From IMG/VR virus record IMGVR_UViG_3300029450_000074: DNA of 16,401 nt; one strand, given 5' to 3'. Both the position numbers and the translations under genes were made by a program. This document shows positions 4,447 to 14,955 of the stretch, one piece after another. The DNA is from a virus. Its lineage: Duplodnaviria; Heunggongvirae; Uroviricota; Caudoviricetes. The notes beneath the pieces were generated by a model. That model saw only the letters and a program-made list of their open reading frames with translations. It was not told the DNA's origin and did no database searches. Each line of letters starts with the position of its first letter. Within the stretch, counting starts at the first letter, position 1.

Positions 4447-5097
4447 ATGGACATCACACTGAATCTAAAAATGAAAAAGGATAAAGCATTAGAATTTTAC
4501 GAAAAACTTTATTTCTCAGAAATTGAGAATAAAGACAAGATACATACTCGCGCTCAAGCCGAATTCGGATTAGTTGTCATTACCGCAACTATACTCACTT
4601 ATCTCGCCAAAAACACATCTTATGAATCCCACCCAAGGCTAGCTTGCCTAGTATTTTTATGTACCGCAATTTCATTTGGCTTAGTTCTTGTATCATCAAT
4701 TCTGTTGAAACAAGTCATATGGGGAAATGAATTTAAGTATTGCCCTGCACCTAAAGCATTGCATGATTATCACATAGATCTGATTAGTTACGAAGTGAAA
4801 TATAAAAAATATTGCGATGACAATGGACTTACATACGATGAAAGTTATAACCCTGATAATAAACTTTGGGAGTTTATTCATCAAGAAATCAGAGAGTGTG
4901 CTAGCTGGAACAGTAATATCAATGAGGAACGTTCCAGTAAACTATTTGAGTCAACAAAGTATCTTGTCTGGTCATGGATTCCAATTATCGCAGCAGTAGT
5001 CATATTTCTTTTAGCTGATTTAGATGCAGCATCACCGCGGAAAAATAACGCCCCTAACTATTTGATAATACCTATTGAAAATGTCAGGAGAACTTAA
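4447..5097 (+). CDS. Hypothetical membrane protein (about 3 predicted TM helices), AT-rich accessory gene
   Basis: 216-aa ORF in visibly AT-rich DNA. Hydrophobic segments FGLVVITATILTYLA, LACLVFLCTAISFGLVLVSSILL and LVWSWIPIIAAVVIFLLADL flank a soluble Cys-containing segment of about 85 aa. No clear SD at the 4447 ATG. No family recognised. Confidence 0.5.
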   Translation: MDITLNLKMKKDKALEFYEKLYFSEIENKDKIHTRAQAEFGLVVITATILTYLAKNTSYESHPRLACLVFLCTAISFGLVLVSSILLKQVIWGNEFKYCPAPKALHDYHIDLISYEVKYKKYCDDNGLTYDESYNPDNKLWEFIHQEIRECASWNSNINEERSSKLFESTKYLVWSWIPIIAAVVIFLLADLDAASPRKNNAPNYLIIPIENVRRT

Positions 5098-5936: not shown

Positions 5937-7550
5937 CTACAATACTTTTCTCTCGATGGTATTTTTAATGGTCAACATATCTTTAGGAATACTTTTTTTC
6001 CCCTCTATACGTATGGTAAACACAAAAAGAATAACGGCTGATCTCACAATTTTCATGAGTTGTAAGAGCTGTTTCTCAAACTTTTCTTTCTCAATAAACC
6101 TCACCTCATCAAAAAATCCATAAGAATTATATAAATCAACTAACATGTCTTTCTCATGAATAACTAACAGTTTATGTTCTAAATCATTCCTCCATTCTTT
6201 AAAAAAAGCAAGCTCACCATTTTTATCATTCAAATCCATAGCAATACTAAACAAACCCAGCAATCCTTTATTATTTATTTTATTTATTTTAAGCTTTCTT
6301 TTTTCATCACTAATCCGCCAGAAGTTATGAAAGTATATATGTCCTCTATCTGGTTTTAAATCAAATAATTGACACAGAGCAACTGCTATTTTATCCAAGA
6401 TACCAAAGCAAGCTCTAAATGCAACCCTTAACTTCTCAACATTTTCATACAATATTTCTCCATTATACAATTCAGAATAACATACCTCCGAATCCTCATC
6501 AAAAAACTCACTATCAACCTTATATTCAAAAAACATTTTTCGTGCTAAGGAATACTCAGCTTTAAGTCTATTTAACACCATTTCCATTGGCACTATAAAA
6601 TCACCAAATACACCTTCCTCGGTGGTCGCAATAGTTATATTATCTTTAGATGACGCATAACAATTGCAATATAGCGAATGATCAGACAACATTAGATTAT
6701 TATCTATACAAAACCTCTGGTAGTTTGATAAAGTATCATACTCCTCCTGCGTGAGCCTTTCATCTGTACTTATATCCTCTATGCCATATACACATGATTC
6801 ACTCAATATACTTTCGTTGTGCTTTATTTTTCTTTGAAGAGTAACCTTCCATGAAGGAAAACATTTCCCTGACTTTATTGCACACTCATAACCTCGAATA
6901 ACTTCTTTAATCATTTTATATGTATATGTTGTAGATAATTCATTAAGCAATTCTAATGCCTCAGATCTGTTTACCCACGCCTGAGGAATTGAGTTATCAA
7001 TAGATATTGCTTGTTCATAATAATCCATTGATTCAGATATACGATATTGTTTTTTTAATACATTAGCTAGATTAACTATTAAATCAGGGGGCACCCATCC
7101 ATCTTCTTGTGAAAGTTTAAACGCTTTCCAGTAATTATTTTTTACATCATTCAGCTTAATGAAACTATCAATATCTGCATTGTCATTAGGATCAAAATCA
7201 AGAACTGCGCTCATTCCATTTGCCAAGTTATAGTAATATAAGGATTCTTTCATTATAGTCAGAAATTCATTTTTATTGTTTATAAAGATATTTAAGCCTT
7301 CCTCCGCTATATTTTTTACATTACTAAAACTTCCGATATCAATAAGATTTCCGGCCAAATTAGATAATATAATTATTCTATTTTCTTTGATTGTATTTAT
7401 CTCATCGATACCGTTAAGAATATCCTTTACATTTTTATAGGCAGAATCAAATGAACCTGCATTAATAAGATCATCTACGAACCCCATTTTTGAAACAACA
7501 TAGTTGATATCCNNNNNNNNNNNNNNNNNNNNNNAAGCTAATAATACCAA
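5937..7550 (-). CDS. Hypothetical 537-aa protein, AT-rich cargo gene; candidate anti-phage/abortive-infection protein with a C-terminal HEPN-like R-x4-H motif
   Basis: Long minus-strand ORF in strongly AT-rich DNA between cos and the tum/A module. C-terminal WRNDLEHKLLVIH contains R-N-D-L-E-H (codons verified at 6174-6191). No Walker A seen. N-terminus uncertain: track start is a TTG at 7550, an N-run (7513-7534) lies in the first codons, and the first ATG after it is at 7487. Confidence 0.6.
   Translation of the reverse strand: MVLLAXXXXXXXXDINYVVSKMGFVDDLINAGSFDSAYKNVKDILNGIDEINTIKENRIIILSNLAGNLIDIGSFSNVKNIAEEGLNIFINNKNEFLTIMKESLYYYNLANGMSAVLDFDPNDNADIDSFIKLNDVKNNYWKAFKLSQEDGWVPPDLIVNLANVLKKQYRISESMDYYEQAISIDNSIPQAWVNRSEALELLNELSTTYTYKMIKEVIRGYECAIKSGKCFPSWKVTLQRKIKHNESILSESCVYGIEDISTDERLTQEEYDTLSNYQRFCIDNNLMLSDHSLYCNCYASSKDNITIATTEEGVFGDFIVPMEMVLNRLKAEYSLARKMFFEYKVDSEFFDEDSEVCYSELYNGEILYENVEKLRVAFRACFGILDKIAVALCQLFDLKPDRGHIYFHNFWRISDEKRKLKINKINNKGLLGLFSIAMDLNDKNGELAFFKEWRNDLEHKLLVIHEKDMLVDLYNSYGFFDEVRFIEKEKFEKQLLQLMKIVRSAVILFVFTIRIEGKKSIPKDMLTIKNTIERKVL
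7513..7534. other. N-run (22 nt) inside the 5' end of the 537-aa cargo ORF
   Basis: Literal n characters in the sequence. Confidence 1.
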
Positions 7551-7603: not shown

Positions 7604-7774
7604 CTACATCAGACCAGTGCCCTTCAAATAATATAAATTGAACTTAGATACTTCTGCTTCAACCAGTGTGTTAAATCCATCGCTTGAACTCAGAACAAAA
7701 AGCGGACGATCACTTATCAAAATGGCCGTCCACCTAACGCCTCGTTTCACTCGTTGCCCAAAATAGTCCCCCAT
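7604..7774 (-). CDS. Small hypothetical ORF (56 aa) downstream of the DinI-like gene
   Basis: ATG at 7772-7774 preceded by AAGAGGA about 10 nt upstream; could be a distal gene of the tum operon. No recognisable motif. Confidence 0.25.
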   Translation of the reverse strand: MGDYFGQRVKRGVRWTAILISDRPLFVLSSSDGFNTLVEAEVSKFNLYYLKGTGLM

Positions 7775-7804: not shown

Positions 7805-8038
7805 TTAATGCAGCCAGCTGTCGTCTTCCCACACCTTCTGCATAATTTTCATCACTTGCTTCCTTTCTTCGTCCAGTTGCAGTCCGGTCAGTTCCACACC
7901 GTTAGAGCTACCTTTGCGAATGCGAATTACCGTTTTGGGATACAGGGGGCGCAGATTGCGGTAAAGCTCGGATTCAAGGGCGTCCAGGGTAGACTGGCTA
8001 ATCTTCTGCTCTTTATCGATCATTATTTCAATGCGCAT
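7805..8038 (-). CDS. DinI-like protein (Tum-type antirepressor C-terminal domain / DinI family)
   Basis: 77-aa product MRIEIMIDKEQKISQSTLDALESELYRNLRPLYPKTVIRIRKGSSNGVELTGLQLDEERKQVMKIMQKVWEDDSWLH resembles E. coli DinI as I recall it (MRIEV...DALAGEL...ETWESADDW). ATG at 8036-8038 with GAGGTG 6 nt upstream; a TGA at 8114-8116 blocks the longer track ORF. Confidence 0.6.
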   Translation of the reverse strand: MRIEIMIDKEQKISQSTLDALESELYRNLRPLYPKTVIRIRKGSSNGVELTGLQLDEERKQVMKIMQKVWEDDSWLH

Positions 8039-8048
8039 AAAAGTCACC

Positions 8049-8240
8049 TCAGCTGATGACATCCATTGAGCGGTTGTATTCGTGGGTTCTGATTTTTGCC
8101 ATGAGTTCATCTGTCAGTTCAGNNNNNNNNNNCTGCAGGGCCAGCCCCTTCTCTTCATCACTACACTCACTAGCCGCTACAAGCTTAAGAAAAAAATCAA
8201 TGCGCTGGAGCTTCAAAGACTCCAAAAAATAGTCCTGCAT
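8049..8240 (-). CDS. Small ORF preceding the DinI-like gene (possible N-terminal part of a Tum-like protein); interrupted by N-run 8123-8132
   Basis: ATG at 8238-8240 with a strong AGGAGG SD; sits about 45 nt downstream of a LexA box. Combined length with the DinI-like ORF is about 145 aa; 186 Tum is about 146 aa (from memory). Confidence 0.4.
   Translation of the reverse strand: MQDYFLESLKLQRIDFFLKLVAASECSDEEKGLALQXXXXELTDELMAKIRTHEYNRSMDVIS
8123..8132. other. N-run (10 nt) inside the tum-like small ORF
   Basis: Literal n characters in the sequence. Confidence 1.
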
Positions 8241-8281
8241 CTTTCCTCCTATGACACCACAAGCAATACTGTACGCATAAC

Positions 8282-8301
8282 CACTGTTTATATTTACAGT
8301 A
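8282..8301 (-). promoter_or_regulatory. LexA (SOS) operator upstream of the tum-like operon
   Basis: cACTGTtTATATtTACAGTA with CTGT-N8-ACAG at 8284-8299, a close match to the LexA box consensus TACTGTATATATATACAGTA. Flanked by AT-rich promoter-like sequence; -10/-35 not resolved. Confidence 0.6.
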
Positions 8302-8393
8302 TATAATAATCTTACTGATGTAAAACGTTTTTTTACGTTCATCAGCCTGATATACCTGGTATTATTAAGAGCACGAATTGTTAACCCGCGTAA

Positions 8394-10771
8394 TTAATAC
8401 AGGTTCCGCCACTTATCATCTTCCTGCAAACGCTGGTTCCGATAGAAAATACGCAGGCCTGCTCCTGACGGAATGCTGCCGCCGCGAAGGAGTAAATCGA
8501 CCTCTTTCTCGCTGCCATCAAATCCTCTGGACTTCAGTTCATAGACGAGCTGCTGTCGCTGATGATCTGTAATTCGCTGTTTGTAGTCTCTACGCCGTTT
8601 CGGTTTCACCAGGCGTAACCTTGCAGCCAGTTCCCGGCGCTCTTTTTTGTTCATATTGTGCAGGTAATCGTGCAATTCCTTGTCATCCATGCGGGTGATA
8701 TCCGTTCTGGTATCCCCATCAGCTGATTTGTCTTTCCCTTGTTGGTACAAATTTTCAGCAAGGGGACAGTTATTGCCACGAGTCCAAGGGGCGCAAGCGC
8801 CCTGATCGGCTGCCGCCTCCTGAACGTCAACGGCCTTACGAACCATTTTCCACTTCACTGCATGAGTGCAGATCTTGCCCTCTGCAATGGGTGACCAGAT
8901 GCCATAAATACGAATACCGTGATCGCCATAGGCGGTTGGCTCTTCGTTGATTTCATAAGCGGTTCTGATGAGGTGATATTTGCGGGGAACCAGTACGCCG
9001 CCCTGCTTCATGATGTAGGTGGCAAAACAACCAGCATCAGCAGCAGCCAGAATGGCATCAAGACGCGGGTTATCCAGTACCGGCGCACCTGCTTTTTTGT
9101 CACCCTGTTGCCTTGCCGCCTGACCAGCCAGCAAGCGAAGTTCACGGTAAGCCTGACGTCCCGGAATACCAAAGAAGCGGAATTGCTGAACACGATGCAG
9201 AGACGCCCAGGCATTAACGTATTCAGCGTTATCACGCAGGGATTTACCCGTTTCCTTGCTGATCTCGCCAGCCAGACCACGCCCGTCAATGTTCTTACTG
9301 ATGTATTTCGCGATGTAGCTTGTCGGCGTTCCTTTGCGCGGGTTTATCAGCTCAGATTTAAAGCGTGGACCAGTGTTATTACCCAGTTCCTCGCGGTCTT
9401 CACGGATGGCAAACTTACGCAACAATGCAGTAATGGCGCGGCGGTCTTTTTTGCGCATGAAACACAACAGGTGCCAGTGAACTGTACCGTCATGATGCGG
9501 CTCAGCCACCCGCACGCCATACCAGCGCAACTCGGCTTTGTGCATCGCCTTACGAAATGCAGCAAACATGCCGACCAGATAATCGCTGCTTTGTCTTACC
9601 GTCGCATTTGTCCAGGTTGGGTTTGGTCTGCCGTTATTGAGCGTGGAATGGAAACGTGACGGACAGGTAATGGTGTAGAAAACGGCGCAGTCACCGCGCA
9701 TTTCCGCGATAAGCTCCAGACCTTTAACACAGGCCATCATCTCATTGCGGCGGTGCGCCGGGTTGCTGCTGCTGGCGTTTACCACGTCTTCCATNNNNNN
9801 NNNNNNNNNNNNNCCTCTTCGTTCACCAGTTCATGAGAACGGAAAAACTCCAGTGACTTGCGGCGCTGCTCACGTTTATGCATCACGGCTTCATAGCTGA
9901 CATAGGGAGATGCTTTTTTGCTGACCAGGCAGACAGCACGCAACTGCTCTTCCCGCCATTCGCAACGCATCTTCCATAATTTCCGGTACCACCAGTCAGC
10001 GCACAACATACGCGCCAGCGAACCCGGAATGAGTTCATAGGGCACGGGTTTACGGCGGTTTCTTTTCCGGCGGAGTTGCTCAAACGCAGGCGGGATGACA
10101 TCCAGACGCAGGGTTTCCGCTGCCACCTTTTCCCATGTCTTGCGGATTTCTTCTGGCTTAACGTCATCGGTGACATACAAATCGCCACAAGCTGCATCAA
10201 GGCACATGCTCATATGCGCAGCTACCAGGGTGGACAGGCGTTTCACCTGATCCTGACTCATTTCAGGCAGGATCAGCAGGCCGTCCAGCCCTACATGGCT
10301 TGCCATAAAGCGAAAAGAAGTGGATAGCTGACAGTCGCGTACATGCTCCAGCCGTTCCAGACATGGCTTAATCGTCTCACGCAAATAGCGGGAATAAGCC
10401 TTTGGCCTGCCCAGGCTGCTGAAGTATTCAATACGTTGCATCAGTGGCTTGCTGATATGGGAAGGCTGGGCATTGACGTCCGCCAGAATGACCATATCTG
10501 GATTAAAACGCTGCTGCTCATGCGCCAGCTTTGCCCGACTAATGAGCTTATCCTGCTCCATTTCGCGCTGGACAGGATCACGGGATTCATTAAAGAAATA
10601 ACGCTCCCAGACCTGATCACTCAGTGCCTCGCGGCGCAGCTGTTCCTGCTCGTTATCGGCAGCGTACAGAGCGATCAGGTTTGAAAGCGCAGAAACTGAA
10701 GATTGCTCTTCTGTCTCTACGTAAGGATTGATTGCTTTTTTCTCAGCATTCCAGGAATAGCTGTAGTTCAT
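8394..10771 (-). CDS. A: Replication initiation protein, P2 gpA family (HUH rolling-circle endonuclease); reading frame interrupted at N-run 9795-9813
   Basis: Two adjacent minus-strand track ORFs (9779-10822 and 8394-9794). The downstream part carries HUH motif [10 protein letters not shown] and tandem-tyrosine motif YIAKYISK. Likely start is ATG 10771 (GGAGA SD) rather than the TTG at 10822. The two parts are in different frames across the 19-nt N-run. Confidence 0.75.
9795..9813. other. N-run (19 nt) inside replication gene A
   Basis: Literal n characters in the sequence. Confidence 1.
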
Positions 10772-10849: not shown

Positions 10850-11608
10850 TCAATTGCACCTTTTAAAATTGCGCAACGGTTTTTCAGAATGACAGCTTTC
10901 AGCTCCTTTTCCGTCANNNNNNNNNNNNNNNNNNNNNTCAGCCTCCTGAATAGCCCGCGTCAGCTCAGGATATTTGCTATTAAATTTGGGGACATTGCAG
11001 GCAAGATTTGTACTGTCGGCAGTCGCCAGTGGGTAATTTCCCAACACACGACCGTCAAGCATGCGCAAACCATGAACAGCTGTTTTGAAATTGTGTCGGC
11101 AATAAATTGCTTCAAAAGCGTCCTGCATACGACGATGCCAGTGCGCAGTTCTGATAGCCGCATATTCACCAGACGATCCAAAGCAGACACGAGGCCATTC
11201 ACGACATAGCTCGATAAGCCGATCGATTGACTCGTGCAGATGCCAGACGGGAGTTGCCTTCCCGTAGAACATTTTCGGAACTTCGTTTATCAGGGCATCA
11301 TTGTCACGTTCACCTCCGTCCACAACATCAGGAATGACAAAAAAAGCGACCTTAGGATGGTGGTAATAGTTCAGGAGCCATTTATAAAAATCACTCCAGT
11401 TAATTTTTAGCCCACGCACCCATGCAGAAAATGCGCCGTTATCAATGCCGACGACCTGAGCGTGCTGAATGGACGCCGCAATCTGATCTGGTCGTACATA
11501 GGAGACGAAAGCGCCAGCTCCGCTCACCGCAATACGATGAACGTCGCCAGCACTTCCCCAGACAGGCGTCCCATGGAAATGATGAATTCCGTGGTGCATT
11601 TCTTTCAC
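10850..11608 (-). CDS. Hypothetical 252-aa protein translationally coupled to the Dam methyltransferase; family unassigned
   Basis: Start (GTG 11606-11608 or ATG 11597-11599) overlaps or abuts the Dam stop (TGA 11605-11607). Motifs GIDNGAFSAW and VIPDVVDGG have a weak, unverified resemblance to TGT/DpdA-type signatures; no zinc-binding Cys cluster. N-run 10917-10937 lies near the C-terminus. Confidence 0.45.
   Translation of the reverse strand: MKEMHHGIHHFHGTPVWGSAGDVHRIAVSGAGAFVSYVRPDQIAASIQHAQVVGIDNGAFSAWVRGLKINWSDFYKWLLNYYHHPKVAFFVIPDVVDGGERDNDALINEVPKMFYGKATPVWHLHESIDRLIELCREWPRVCFGSSGEYAAIRTAHWHRRMQDAFEAIYCRHNFKTAVHGLRMLDGRVLGNYPLATADSTNLACNVPKFNSKYPELTRAIQEAXXXXXXXXDGKGAESCHSEKPLRNFKRCN
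10917..10937. other. N-run (21 nt) inside the Dam-coupled 252-aa ORF
   Basis: Literal n characters in the sequence. Confidence 1.
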
Positions 11609-12459
11609 ACTTGCACCCCGAAAATAACAGTAGAGTCACGTCCCCTACTAAAATCGGCACTAAACCAATTAGCAGATTTAGTGGCAATCATCTCTGTTGC
11701 AAATTTTCCCTCCCCCGCTGCAACGCCGATGCTGCGTTTCGCCCTGATGTAGTGGTGAGTGAAATTACGATAAAGGGACCGGGTCAAAGACGTGTTACTG
11801 TTAGAAACAATGACCGGATGTCCTTCTGATGACCGATGTTCAAGAATGGATGCCAGGTGATACTGATCATCTTCAGTGAAACCATCAGTGTGATAGCCGG
11901 AAAACGTACCGTCATAAGGCGGATCGCAATACACCACATCCCCCACCTTCAACATCGCCAGCGTTTCATCAAAGCTGGCGCAGATAAACGTTGCCCGCTG
12001 GGCTTTCTCTGCAAATGCGCGAATTTCTTTTTCAGGGAAATACGGATTTTTATAATTACCGTAGGGAATGTTGAAATGCCCGCTCTTGTTATAGCGACAT
12101 AAACCACGGTAACCGTGACGATTGAGATACAGGAAATATACCGCTTTCATGAAATCAGTAATTTCAGTGGAGTAATTAAACTCCTGCCTTATGTTGTAAT
12201 AAGCCACCTCCCTGTTTGCTTCCTCAAATAAAGCTCTGGCACGAGATATAAACGCCTCACAATCAGCAGCAACCTTTTTATAGAGGTTGATTAAATCAGG
12301 ATTAATATCCGCAACAAGATAGCTGGGGTAATCCGTCTCCATCATCACTGCACAGGAACCCGCGAAAGGTTCAACCAGTCGCGGGCCAGCAGGAAGATGC
12401 TTTTTCAGTTCGGACATTATGGCGGTTTTATTTCCTGCCCATTTCAGGATGGTGCTCAT
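11605..12459 (-). CDS. DNA adenine methyltransferase (Dam / D12-class N6-adenine MTase)
   Basis: N-terminus [23 protein letters not shown] resembles the Dam N-terminus; AdoMet motif EPFAGSCAV and catalytic DPPY ([10 protein letters not shown]) present. ATG at 12457-12459 with GGAGGT 6 nt upstream, overlapping the upstream zinc-finger gene stop. Confidence 0.85.
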
Positions 12460-12683
12460 ACAGCACCTCCGTTGTAATGTTTGCCTTTCAGCTCTGCGAT
12501 TTCCTGACAGGTAATGCAAAGCTGCACACCCGGAATGGCACGGCGGCGTGCTGGCGGAATTGGCGCTTCACACTCAACGCAAAGCACGCGGGACACGCCC
12601 GGCGTTTTGGCACGGGCAGCACGGATATGGCGTTGGCGTTCTTCTTCAACGCGCTGCTGTACGAGATCCATTGCATCAGCCAT
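12456..12683 (-). CDS. TraR/DksA-family C4 zinc-finger protein (P2 orf82-like)
   Basis: 75-aa ORF with CVEC...CITC (CxxC-N17-CxxC); ATG at 12681-12683 overlaps the upstream ORF stop. Confidence 0.7.
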   Translation of the reverse strand: MADAMDLVQQRVEEERQRHIRAARAKTPGVSRVLCVECEAPIPPARRRAIPGVQLCITCQEIAELKGKHYNGGAV

Positions 12684-14260: not shown

Positions 14261-14385
14261 GATGCAACATTCCTCGTTTAATGATGATTAATCAGGACGA
14301 ATACGGATCGTTTGTATTTTGTGAACACCATAAACATACGATCGCACAGTGAAATCGTCAAGATAAAAGTTCACTTGGAGTGACC
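14261..14385. promoter_or_regulatory. Lysogeny/lysis switch region; candidate leftward lytic promoter
   Basis: On the minus strand: -35 TTGACG (plus 14356-14361), 17-nt spacer, -10 TATGTT (plus 14333-14338), reading toward the Apl-like gene. A rightward repressor promoter was not confidently located. Confidence 0.35.
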
Positions 14386-14955
14386 ATGAATTTGGAGAAA
14401 GGCGGACGAGGCGCTATAGAGCGCATGGTAGAAGCTTATGGATTCAAAACTCGACAGGCGTTGTGCGATCATTTAGGAATCTCTAAAAGTACACTCGCCA
14501 CACGCTACATGCGTGACTCATTCCCAGCAGAATGGGTAATCCAGTGCGCCCTTGAAACGGGCACCTCGCTTAATTGGCTCACAACCGGACATGGTTCAAA
14601 GCAAACTTCAGGTAATACAAATACTATGGAAGTTGCTAAATATGTATTATCTGATGGTGCCTTGCGTGAAGACGGTTTTTATATTTTTGATAAGGGATTT
14701 CTACCCTCTACGTTTAAAAAACCTTTTGTCATCACAGATAACAATTCTGAATTTATTTGTGATAAAGAATTTGATGATATACGTGACGGTAAATGGGTAA
14801 TAAGTATTGATGGCGAAATAACAATCCGCGACATTACTCGTTTACCCGGTGGAAGAATCTTCGTTGAAGGTGGAAACAGAGCCTTCGAGTGCAAGATAGA
14901 AGATGTTGAAATAATTGGGAAAATTATAAGTTTAACAATTAAGTACGTTAGGTAA
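14386..14955 (+). CDS. cI: CI-type immunity repressor (186 CI-like, N-terminal HTH)
   Basis: 189 aa from ATG 14386 (GGAG 5 nt upstream; track start 14380 is a GTG). HTH TRQALCDHLGISKSTLATRYMRD. Size fits 186 CI (about 192 aa), not P2 C (99 aa). Confidence 0.7.
   Translation: MNLEKGGRGAIERMVEAYGFKTRQALCDHLGISKSTLATRYMRDSFPAEWVIQCALETGTSLNWLTTGHGSKQTSGNTNTMEVAKYVLSDGALREDGFYIFDKGFLPSTFKKPFVITDNNSEFICDKEFDDIRDGKWVISIDGEITIRDITRLPGGRIFVEGGNRAFECKIEDVEIIGKIISLTIKYVR

Follow-up and report, generated by a model that had tools for sequence, protein, structure and literature searches.

Modules in which LexA controls the expression of a prophage antirepressor have been described before, in accounts that include Lemire et al. 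The database record of phage 186 carries an SOS-dependent promoter, p95, with a LexA site, and annotates tum as 'expression repressed by LexA; inhibits CI DNA binding'; the same record lists shorter, DinI-only products, which 'modulate SOS induction'. For 186 Tum, binding to CI and the consequent block of DNA binding have been shown. The initial annotation of the DNA analysed here had named a LexA-repressed Tum as the antirepressor of 186, and the record agrees with it. In Fels-2 and PSP3, tum is split in two by a stop codon, and the upstream half is the antirepressor (PMC3121763); the PSP3 record names the two parts tumA ('similar to 5' end 186 tum; UV induction of prophage') and tumB.

Expression and deletion data are available for two close relatives. 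For Fels-2 in Salmonella, STM2727 is reported to increase 5.5- to 14.8-fold with the mutagen MX, and STM2726-2727-2728 is scored as a responsive operon (PMC2225428); the title of Bunny et al. 2002 attributes to Fels-2 the lethality of lexA null mutations in LT2. For DuoHS, a prophage of E. coli HS, ECHS_RS04495 is named tum in the Phollow supplement (PMC12055606), and Extended Data Fig. 1 of the same paper reports that a markerless in-frame deletion of this gene abolishes both lysis and virions after mitomycin C, as does a non-cleavable lexA(Ind-) allele. The tum deletion, as described there, may also act via the translation of the downstream DinI-like gene. A comparable operon make-up is found in Gifsy-1/2/3, where dinI-gfoA/gftA, repressed by LexA, codes for a DinI homologue and a small antirepressor of a non-cleavable repressor (PMC3121763): here the gene order is reversed, with dinI first, and both the antirepressors and their targets are of the lambdoid type, the comparison concerning the composition of the operon. 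Non-polar deletions of the Gifsy dinI genes had no clear effect (PMC3121763). Module, mechanism and split form are thus already established, in one case for a gene nearly identical to the one described below.

The window, that is, the whole stretch of 16,401 nucleotides of viral DNA analysed here, is classified by its matches and gene order as a Fels-2-like prophage of the P2 family. Over a 721-nt region, DNA identity is 95–97% to members of the P2 family (Peduoviridae), both phages and prophages, from Salmonella (Fels-2), Klebsiella and E. coli, and prophages matching the whole window are present in 1354 of 5426 complete E. coli genomes. Genes are found on both strands of the window; their order, with coordinates decreasing as the minus strand is followed, is int, a small ORF, CI, an apl/cox-like gene, CII (PF06892), fil, several small genes, a Dam-type methylase, gpA, a further small ORF, a DinI-like ORF, cargo genes, portal and terminase. 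The same order is found in Fels-2, EC100 and the E. coli HS prophage, while the order within the SOS module is shared by 186, PSP3, Fels-2, 813R9, EC100 and DuoHS. A search for a P2-type cos sequence found none, and scanning the whole window for Rfam families and tRNAs gave no hits.

The lysogeny module is of the 186 type, as judged from its repressor. The CI gene (14380..14955, plus strand), whose product is the presumed target of the antirepressor, matches PF07022 (E 2.8e-33) and PF16452 (E 2e-28), is 32% identical to 186 CI (E 8.5e-38), and matches PDB entry 2fjr, the sequence of the 186 CI crystal structure, at E 3.3e-31; the S24 peptidase domain, sought in Pfam as a sign of autocleavage, stayed below threshold. 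By the SOS operon described below, the prophage is placed among the SOS-inducible 186/Fels-2-type members of the P2 family, and not with the non-inducible P2 type.

Directly after the gene of the P2 gpA-type replication endonuclease (stop codon at 8396-8394, on the minus strand, like all features described below) lies what is, with high confidence, the SOS operon of this prophage, composed of a LexA-repressed tum and a DinI-like gene. An induction module of this kind had been proposed in the initial annotation, and the proposal is supported by the identity and deletion phenotype of DuoHS tum, by the induction of the Fels-2 genes and by a DNA identity of about 96% to the latter. The first gene, tum or tumA-type (8049..8240), starts at ATG 8240 and ends at TGA 8051-8049; the second, tumB or DinI-like (7805..8038), starts at ATG 8038, ends at TAA 7807-7805 and codes for 77 aa. 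Its own Shine-Dalgarno sequence, GAGGTGA, overlaps the tum stop. The spacer between the two genes is 10 nt long, rather than the 11 nt first reported, and the combined length, previously put at about 145 aa, is 62 or 63 plus 77, that is 139–140 aa, as compared to the 146 aa of 186 Tum.

Among the known relatives, DuoHS is nearly identical to the window: 61 of 62 Tum residues, 77 of 77 residues of the DinI-like protein (ECHS_RS04500) and 180 of 189 CI residues are the same, as are the gene order after gene A, the sequence of the first LexA box and the offset of the second (both boxes are described below). Differences consist of a T50S substitution, located outside the masked codons, of three bases in the spacer of the second box, and of the downstream cargo genes. 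Fels-2, where the genes are STM2728 and STM2727 (STM2726.1), features the same double box and the same split, with about 96% DNA identity over promoter and both genes. PSP3 likewise carries its two genes separately, following gene A and a LexA box, but differs in its single box, in its 286-aa cI gene (191 aa for the window CI), and in the family of TumA, which is PHROG 1993, compared to 698 for the window ORF. Phage 186 shares a LexA box overlapping the -10 hexamer after gene A, and a 186-type CI; it differs in the single box, in an operon running into orf97, and in its single 146-aa polypeptide, with internal starts generating the DinI-only products.

A fused polypeptide of the 186 type was considered for the window, and is ruled out by the TGA at 8051-8049, followed by the 10-nt spacer and by a separate Shine-Dalgarno sequence and ATG. 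A run of 10 N, at 8123-8132, had left doubts on this point, as the initial annotation allowed either for an artefact of masking or for a genuine pair of proteins. The run falls within the first ORF and does not touch the spacer that separates it from the second. In its place 7 nt, TGGGTTT, corresponding to codons W-V-S, are present in Fels-2, phage 813R9 and E. coli EC100, whose sequences are almost the same as that of the window in the rest of this region; since 10 and 7 differ by 3, the reading frame is kept either way. The length of the mask is in itself uninformative: two further N-runs of the window measure 22 and 21 nt, as compared to 19 and 14 nt in a relative, showing that masks are not faithful in length (a fourth run, for which no comparison was possible, was left out). 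Stop codon of the first ORF, spacer, second Shine-Dalgarno and ATG are all unmasked, and conserved in relatives. The artefact is accordingly ruled out; taken together with the split tum already described (PMC3121763), these sequence features show that the two-gene, tumA/tumB arrangement is genuine.

The small ORF codes for 62 aa in relatives, and for 63 codons as masked. Searches in Pfam, NCBIfam and PDB sequences gave no meaningful match, and direct BLASTP against 186 Tum and PSP3 TumA gave none even at E 100: homology to 186 Tum is therefore distant, and is seen only through profiles. The ORF matches phrog_698 ('unknown function') at E 3.6e-38, and residues 1–70 of 186 Tum match the same family at E 6.7e-6, over the same positions (7–44). 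Both also match phrog_8554 (E 2.4e-8 and 3.3e-12) and phrog_1993, the family of PSP3 TumA (E 0.0022 for the small ORF). When the small-ORF and 186 Tum families are compared by hhalign, the alignment is colinear, 4–43 versus 4–43, with a P of 0.0013 and a probability of 18%. A five-way alignment reveals an invariant Cys and a core of the form [IL]-A-L-x-x-[ILV]-x-[ED]-[ILM]. AlphaFold models the protein as a two-helix hairpin (helices 2–23 and 28–61, pLDDT 89.5), with the conserved Cys in the predicted turn; Foldseek comparison of the model to viral structures returned only non-specific helical-hairpin matches, none at E <=0.001.

The assignment to Tum is based on the PHROG cross-matches, the hhalign result, the motif, the genomic position with its LexA box, and the 61 out of 62 residues shared with DuoHS. 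Taken together, these identify the small ORF as distantly homologous to PSP3 TumA and to the N-terminal half of 186 Tum, the one with antirepressor function. The 62-aa gene may accordingly be named tum (tumA-type antirepressor), which should be useful for annotation. In RefSeq the gene is labelled 'hypothetical protein', and its start is often called wrongly, with an extended reading frame.

The assignment of the second gene is more direct. The DinI-like ORF matches Pfam PF06183 over the whole profile (positions 1–63 of 63) at E 6.6e-23, with 81.3 bits against a cutoff of 24.2, so that this part of the initial reading stands; it also matches positions 71–148 of phrog_189, and its identity amounts to 78% with PSP3 TumB and to 41% with residues 71–145 of 186 Tum. 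Its score for the chromosomal DinI equivalog, NCBIfam NF007893, is 42.7 bits, below the cutoff of 111, indicating a prophage paralogue and not the host dinI. From family membership and from the annotation of 186, the protein would be expected to modulate RecA and the SOS signal.

As a recognised domain is found in the DinI half only, and 186 Tum goes by the name of 'RecA filament binding protein DinI' in databases, one may think of the DinI-like protein as the inducer, the small ORF being an unrelated passenger or a leader peptide. This is very improbable: the gene deleted in DuoHS is the small ORF, the antirepressor activity of PSP3 resides in the upstream gene, and for the truncated, DinI-only products of 186 Tum the annotation gives a modulating role rather than that of an inducer. 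The distribution of the two genes also argues against it. A scan of one genome per species gave 33 loci encoding the small ORF, spread over Escherichia, Citrobacter, Klebsiella, Enterobacter, Serratia, Pantoea, Erwinia, Tatumella and other Enterobacterales. A DinI-like gene follows in 20 of them, in two cases as a damaged copy; the other 13 have no DinI gene, and these, as well as phages of the ESSI-2 type, keep both the LexA box and the small ORF. The DinI gene is dispensable across loci, and the LexA-controlled small ORF is what they all conserve; this marks it as the core effector, and fits with its product being the inducer.

Between the gpA stop and tum, an AU-rich hairpin (8345-8315) is followed by the putative promoter. 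A strict sigma-70 scan called no promoter at the tum operon, and its elements are therefore assigned by analogy with 186. The putative -35 hexamer is TTTACA (8319..8324), preceded by a conserved A-tract and analogous in position to the annotated -35 of p95; in 31 related genome loci this position holds either TTTACA or TTTCAC. The putative -10 hexamer, TACTGT (8296..8301), lies at a distance of 17 nt, within the first LexA box; the geometry is the same as that of p95, where TACTGT, belonging to the LexA box, is annotated as the -10. An alternative -10 may be TATACT, with a spacer of 15 nt. In related loci hexamer and boxes are conserved, while the 17-nt spacer between them has diverged. The Shine-Dalgarno sequence of the small ORF, AGGAGG (8245..8250), is read from the sequence and occurs as AGGAGG or GGAGGG in related loci.

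The first LexA box, box 1, corresponds to the 20-mer TACTGTAAATATAAACAGTG (8282..8301), which matches the E. coli LexA consensus TACTGTATATATATACAGTA at 17 of 20 positions; its core, CTGTAAATATAAACAG (8299-8284), is the only CTGT-N8-ACAG of the window. Box 1 overlaps the -10 deduced above, as in p95, and its core is separated by 43 nt from the ATG at 8240. The initial annotation had reported a box at this place, about 45 nt before a small ORF with a strong Shine-Dalgarno sequence, and both observations are confirmed. LexA sites were rated by the number of mismatches, and by comparison with 200 dinucleotide-preserving shuffles. The bare 16-mer pattern, with an expectation of 0.17, is present at least once in 32 of the 200 shuffles, as might be taken to indicate a chance match in AT-rich intergenic DNA. 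Chance is nevertheless a next to negligible explanation, since sites with three mismatches or less to the consensus are found in none of the 200 shuffles, the double-box pattern described below is likewise found in none, and the box keeps its position in diverged loci and in different phage genera. A LexA box precedes the homologous small ORF in 31 of the 33 genome loci, as it does in 186, PSP3, ESSI-2, Fels-2 and DuoHS; the two loci devoid of it are a contig end and a truncated pseudogene. Repression of the window promoter by LexA is predicted on these grounds, and both the lexA(Ind-) result in DuoHS and the expression data for Fels-2 agree with it.

A candidate second box, box 2, was found immediately downstream: CAGTGGTTATGCGTACAGTA (8267..8286), with core GTGGTTATGCGTACAG at 8284-8269, of the form GTGG-N8-ACAG. 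The two cores, CTGTAAATATAAACAG and GTGGTTATGCGTACAG, overlap by one base pair (G8284) and together cover 8299-8269, forming a 31-bp composite operator, CTGT-N8-ACAG-TGG-N8-ACAG. The composite pattern occurs once in the window. It also occurs once, at the tum promoter, in 19 genome loci and in Fels-2, 813R9, EC100 and DuoHS. By a looser criterion, a second ACAG is present at +15 in 23 of 33 distinct promoters, the right half being (A/G)TACAG. Only a single LexA box is found in 186, PSP3, phages of the ESSI-2 type, and the Pantoea/Erwinia/Tatumella loci.

Similar operators are found outside prophages. A stretch of 40 nt including the operator matches small Col-type plasmids at 87–92% identity, and the matches are located in the promoters of colicin R, of a klebicin-like tRNase bacteriocin and of pesticin. 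The window operator, TATACTGTAAATATAAACAGTGGTTATGCGTACAGTATT, is identical at 35 of 39 positions to those of colicin R (TATACTGTACATAAAACCAGTGGTTATGTGTACAGTATT) and klebicin. According to a published account, two LexA dimers occupy overlapping boxes of the colicin type and keep basal expression very low (PMC2994835). Two differences are seen: the boxes of the colicin, klebicin and pesticin promoters seem to be placed just downstream of a separate -10, whereas in the window box 1 appears to supply it; and the bacteriocin operators control a toxin, while that of the window controls a prophage antirepressor.

On the basis of this likeness it is tentatively suggested, with somewhat less than even confidence, that the tum promoter carries a double LexA operator of the colicin type, kept in about two thirds of Fels-2-like tum promoters, and that the module was perhaps swapped between Col plasmids and prophages. 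By analogy with colicins, LexA would bind box 2 as well, for a total of two dimers. Another reading, where box 1 is the only operator, 8284-8267 a leader or transcription-start element and the colicin likeness without function, is rather unlikely. It is favoured by the poor quality of box 2, which matches the 20-mer consensus at 13 of 20 positions and has GTGG in place of CTGT in its left half; the proximal boxes of colicin operators, however, are individually just as weak (heterology index 9.7–13; PMC2994835 Table 3), and are nonetheless described as part of sites binding two dimers. The same reading draws on the phages and loci with one box, listed above, which work with it or at least carry it; against it stand the 35 of 39 positions shared with the two bacteriocin operators and the exact placement of the (A/G)TACAG right half in most promoters.

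No description of a double operator at tum promoters was found in the searchable literature, which is weak evidence of its being unreported. No new question is opened by the locus as a whole, the double operator representing its only slightly new angle. If box 2 binds LexA, P2-family lineages would set the induction threshold, and the rate of spontaneous induction, by the number of operators; a double operator could explain tight repression and low spontaneous induction. One of the genome loci, L007, shows a 100% protein match to the window, and differs from it in the spacer of box 2.

The following course of events may be proposed. In an undamaged lysogen LexA would sit on the operator, overlapping the -10 region and the start site just downstream of replication gene A, probably as two dimers on the overlapping boxes, and the operon would be silent. 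Upon DNA damage, activated RecA would promote self-cleavage of LexA, and the promoter would fire. The first product, the two-helix Tum, is proposed to bind the 186-type CI of the same prophage, which would no longer occupy its operators, leading to lytic development. The DinI-like second product would be accessory, probably modulating the activity of RecA filaments and the SOS signal, and not acting as inducer. For the window protein, the interaction with CI is predicted from the distant homology to 186 Tum and from the presence of a 186-type CI; likewise, the requirement of the small protein for induction, shown for the 98%-identical gene of DuoHS, is extended to the window copy by analogy.

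Since only 16.4 kb are visible, we infer, rather than observe, the inducibility of the prophage, and a defect may lie in the part outside the window. Under such conditions the operon would still be induced by SOS, and the module could serve as an SOS accessory at the level of the host, or as a trans-acting inducer of other prophages. Precedents exist on both counts: from BTP5, a P2-like Salmonella prophage with tum, no phage could be detected even with mitomycin C (PMC7067206), and cases are on record of antirepressors that act in trans on other prophages (PMC3121763). A defective copy is nevertheless improbable, as all genes seen in the window are intact and collinear with functional relatives, and CI, Tum and DinI are 95–100% identical to those of inducible DuoHS. 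For a prophage of the SOS-inducible type, DNA-damaging antibiotics should trigger the lytic cycle, and with it the spread of the cargo genes.

At the other end of the operon, some 70 nt beyond the stop of the DinI-like gene, a terminator-like hairpin is followed by UUUUUGUU (7694..7734). The hairpin has a predicted energy of -20.3 kcal/mol (z -2.5), and only 1 of 200 shuffled sequences folds as well. A simple terminator scan did not call it, possibly owing to the length and partial pairing of its loop; the one structure that the scan did call was a weak hairpin spanning the tum stop. In position, the hairpin at 7694..7734 corresponds to t95a of 186; folding and analogy together suggest that transcription ends at the hairpin and its U-tract. 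Fels-2 differs at this point: the next gene is a 243-aa ORF (STM2726), placed as orf97 is in 186, while in the window the terminator-like hairpin, and then a HEPN_LA2681/TPR gene, are found in place of STM2726.

The antirepressor gene of the tum operon, a small ORF of 62/63 codons, is not always accompanied by its DinI-like partner. At 13 of the 33 loci encoding it, with one genome scanned per species, the small tum-like ORF and its LexA box are kept while the DinI-like gene is absent downstream (L012, L016, L022, L026, L030-L037 and L039). Two further loci, L021 and L038, retain only a truncated or frameshifted copy of the DinI-like gene. Phages of the ESSI-2 type (L045, L046) likewise feature the LexA box and the small ORF, with no DinI-like gene following the latter. 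Among the listed matches to residues 1-70 of 186 Tum, the antirepressor half of that 146-aa protein, many stand alone as proteins of 63-78 aa, some bearing the name "Tum protein"; the split form, with two separate genes, therefore seems to be common in the 186-type subfamily too.

In many database entries (proteins P0001-P0120) the small ORF is called at a greater length, 78-109 aa. An in-frame upstream ATG at 8342 allows a 97-aa reading in the window (8049-8342, minus strand). The long calls are probably mis-called starts, because this ATG precedes both the promoter and the LexA box. Some sources name the product "levan regulatory protein", for which no basis was seen.

The window contains four N-runs (7513-7534, 8123-8132, 9795-9813 and 10917-10937). 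A relative with 97% identity allowed comparison for three of the four, and in all three the mask differs from the real length (22 versus 19, 10 versus 7 and 21 versus 14 nt); reading frames, therefore, should not be judged from the masks.

Between the stop codon of gpA, the replication endonuclease gene, and the tum promoter lies an AU-rich hairpin (8315-8345, minus strand; -9.5 kcal/mol, z -2.9), with the -35 hexamer located in its 3' arm. The hairpin may act as a weak terminator, insulating tum from early-operon read-through; comparable insulation has been noted for Gifsy prophages (PMC3121763). More distant loci lack a conserved hairpin here but do conserve the A-tract preceding the -35 hexamer.

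The gene that follows the tum operon directly (5937-7550, minus strand; about 525-537 aa) encodes TPR repeats and, by Pfam match, a C-terminal LA2681-type HEPN domain (PF18733, E 1.9e-38); apart from a weak TPR match, PADLOC assigns it to no defence system. In related E. coli prophages other cargo is found alongside this gene (AIPR, retron Ec67 RT, DUF262, AAA ATPase), which suggests that this part of the prophage is a hotspot for variable cargo. Directly after the portal gene, a 216-aa ORF (4447-5097, plus strand) was assigned no family by Pfam and PADLOC searches; E. coli EC100 lacks it, carrying a different gene at the same place.

An orphan Dam-type DNA adenine methyltransferase gene (11605-12519; PADLOC oMTase, E 5.8e-110) is placed between the early genes and gpA, together with a 252-aa ORF that has no annotation (10850-11608); both are on the minus strand. 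The same arrangement is found in EC100; in Fels-2 the methylase gene is immediately upstream of gpA.
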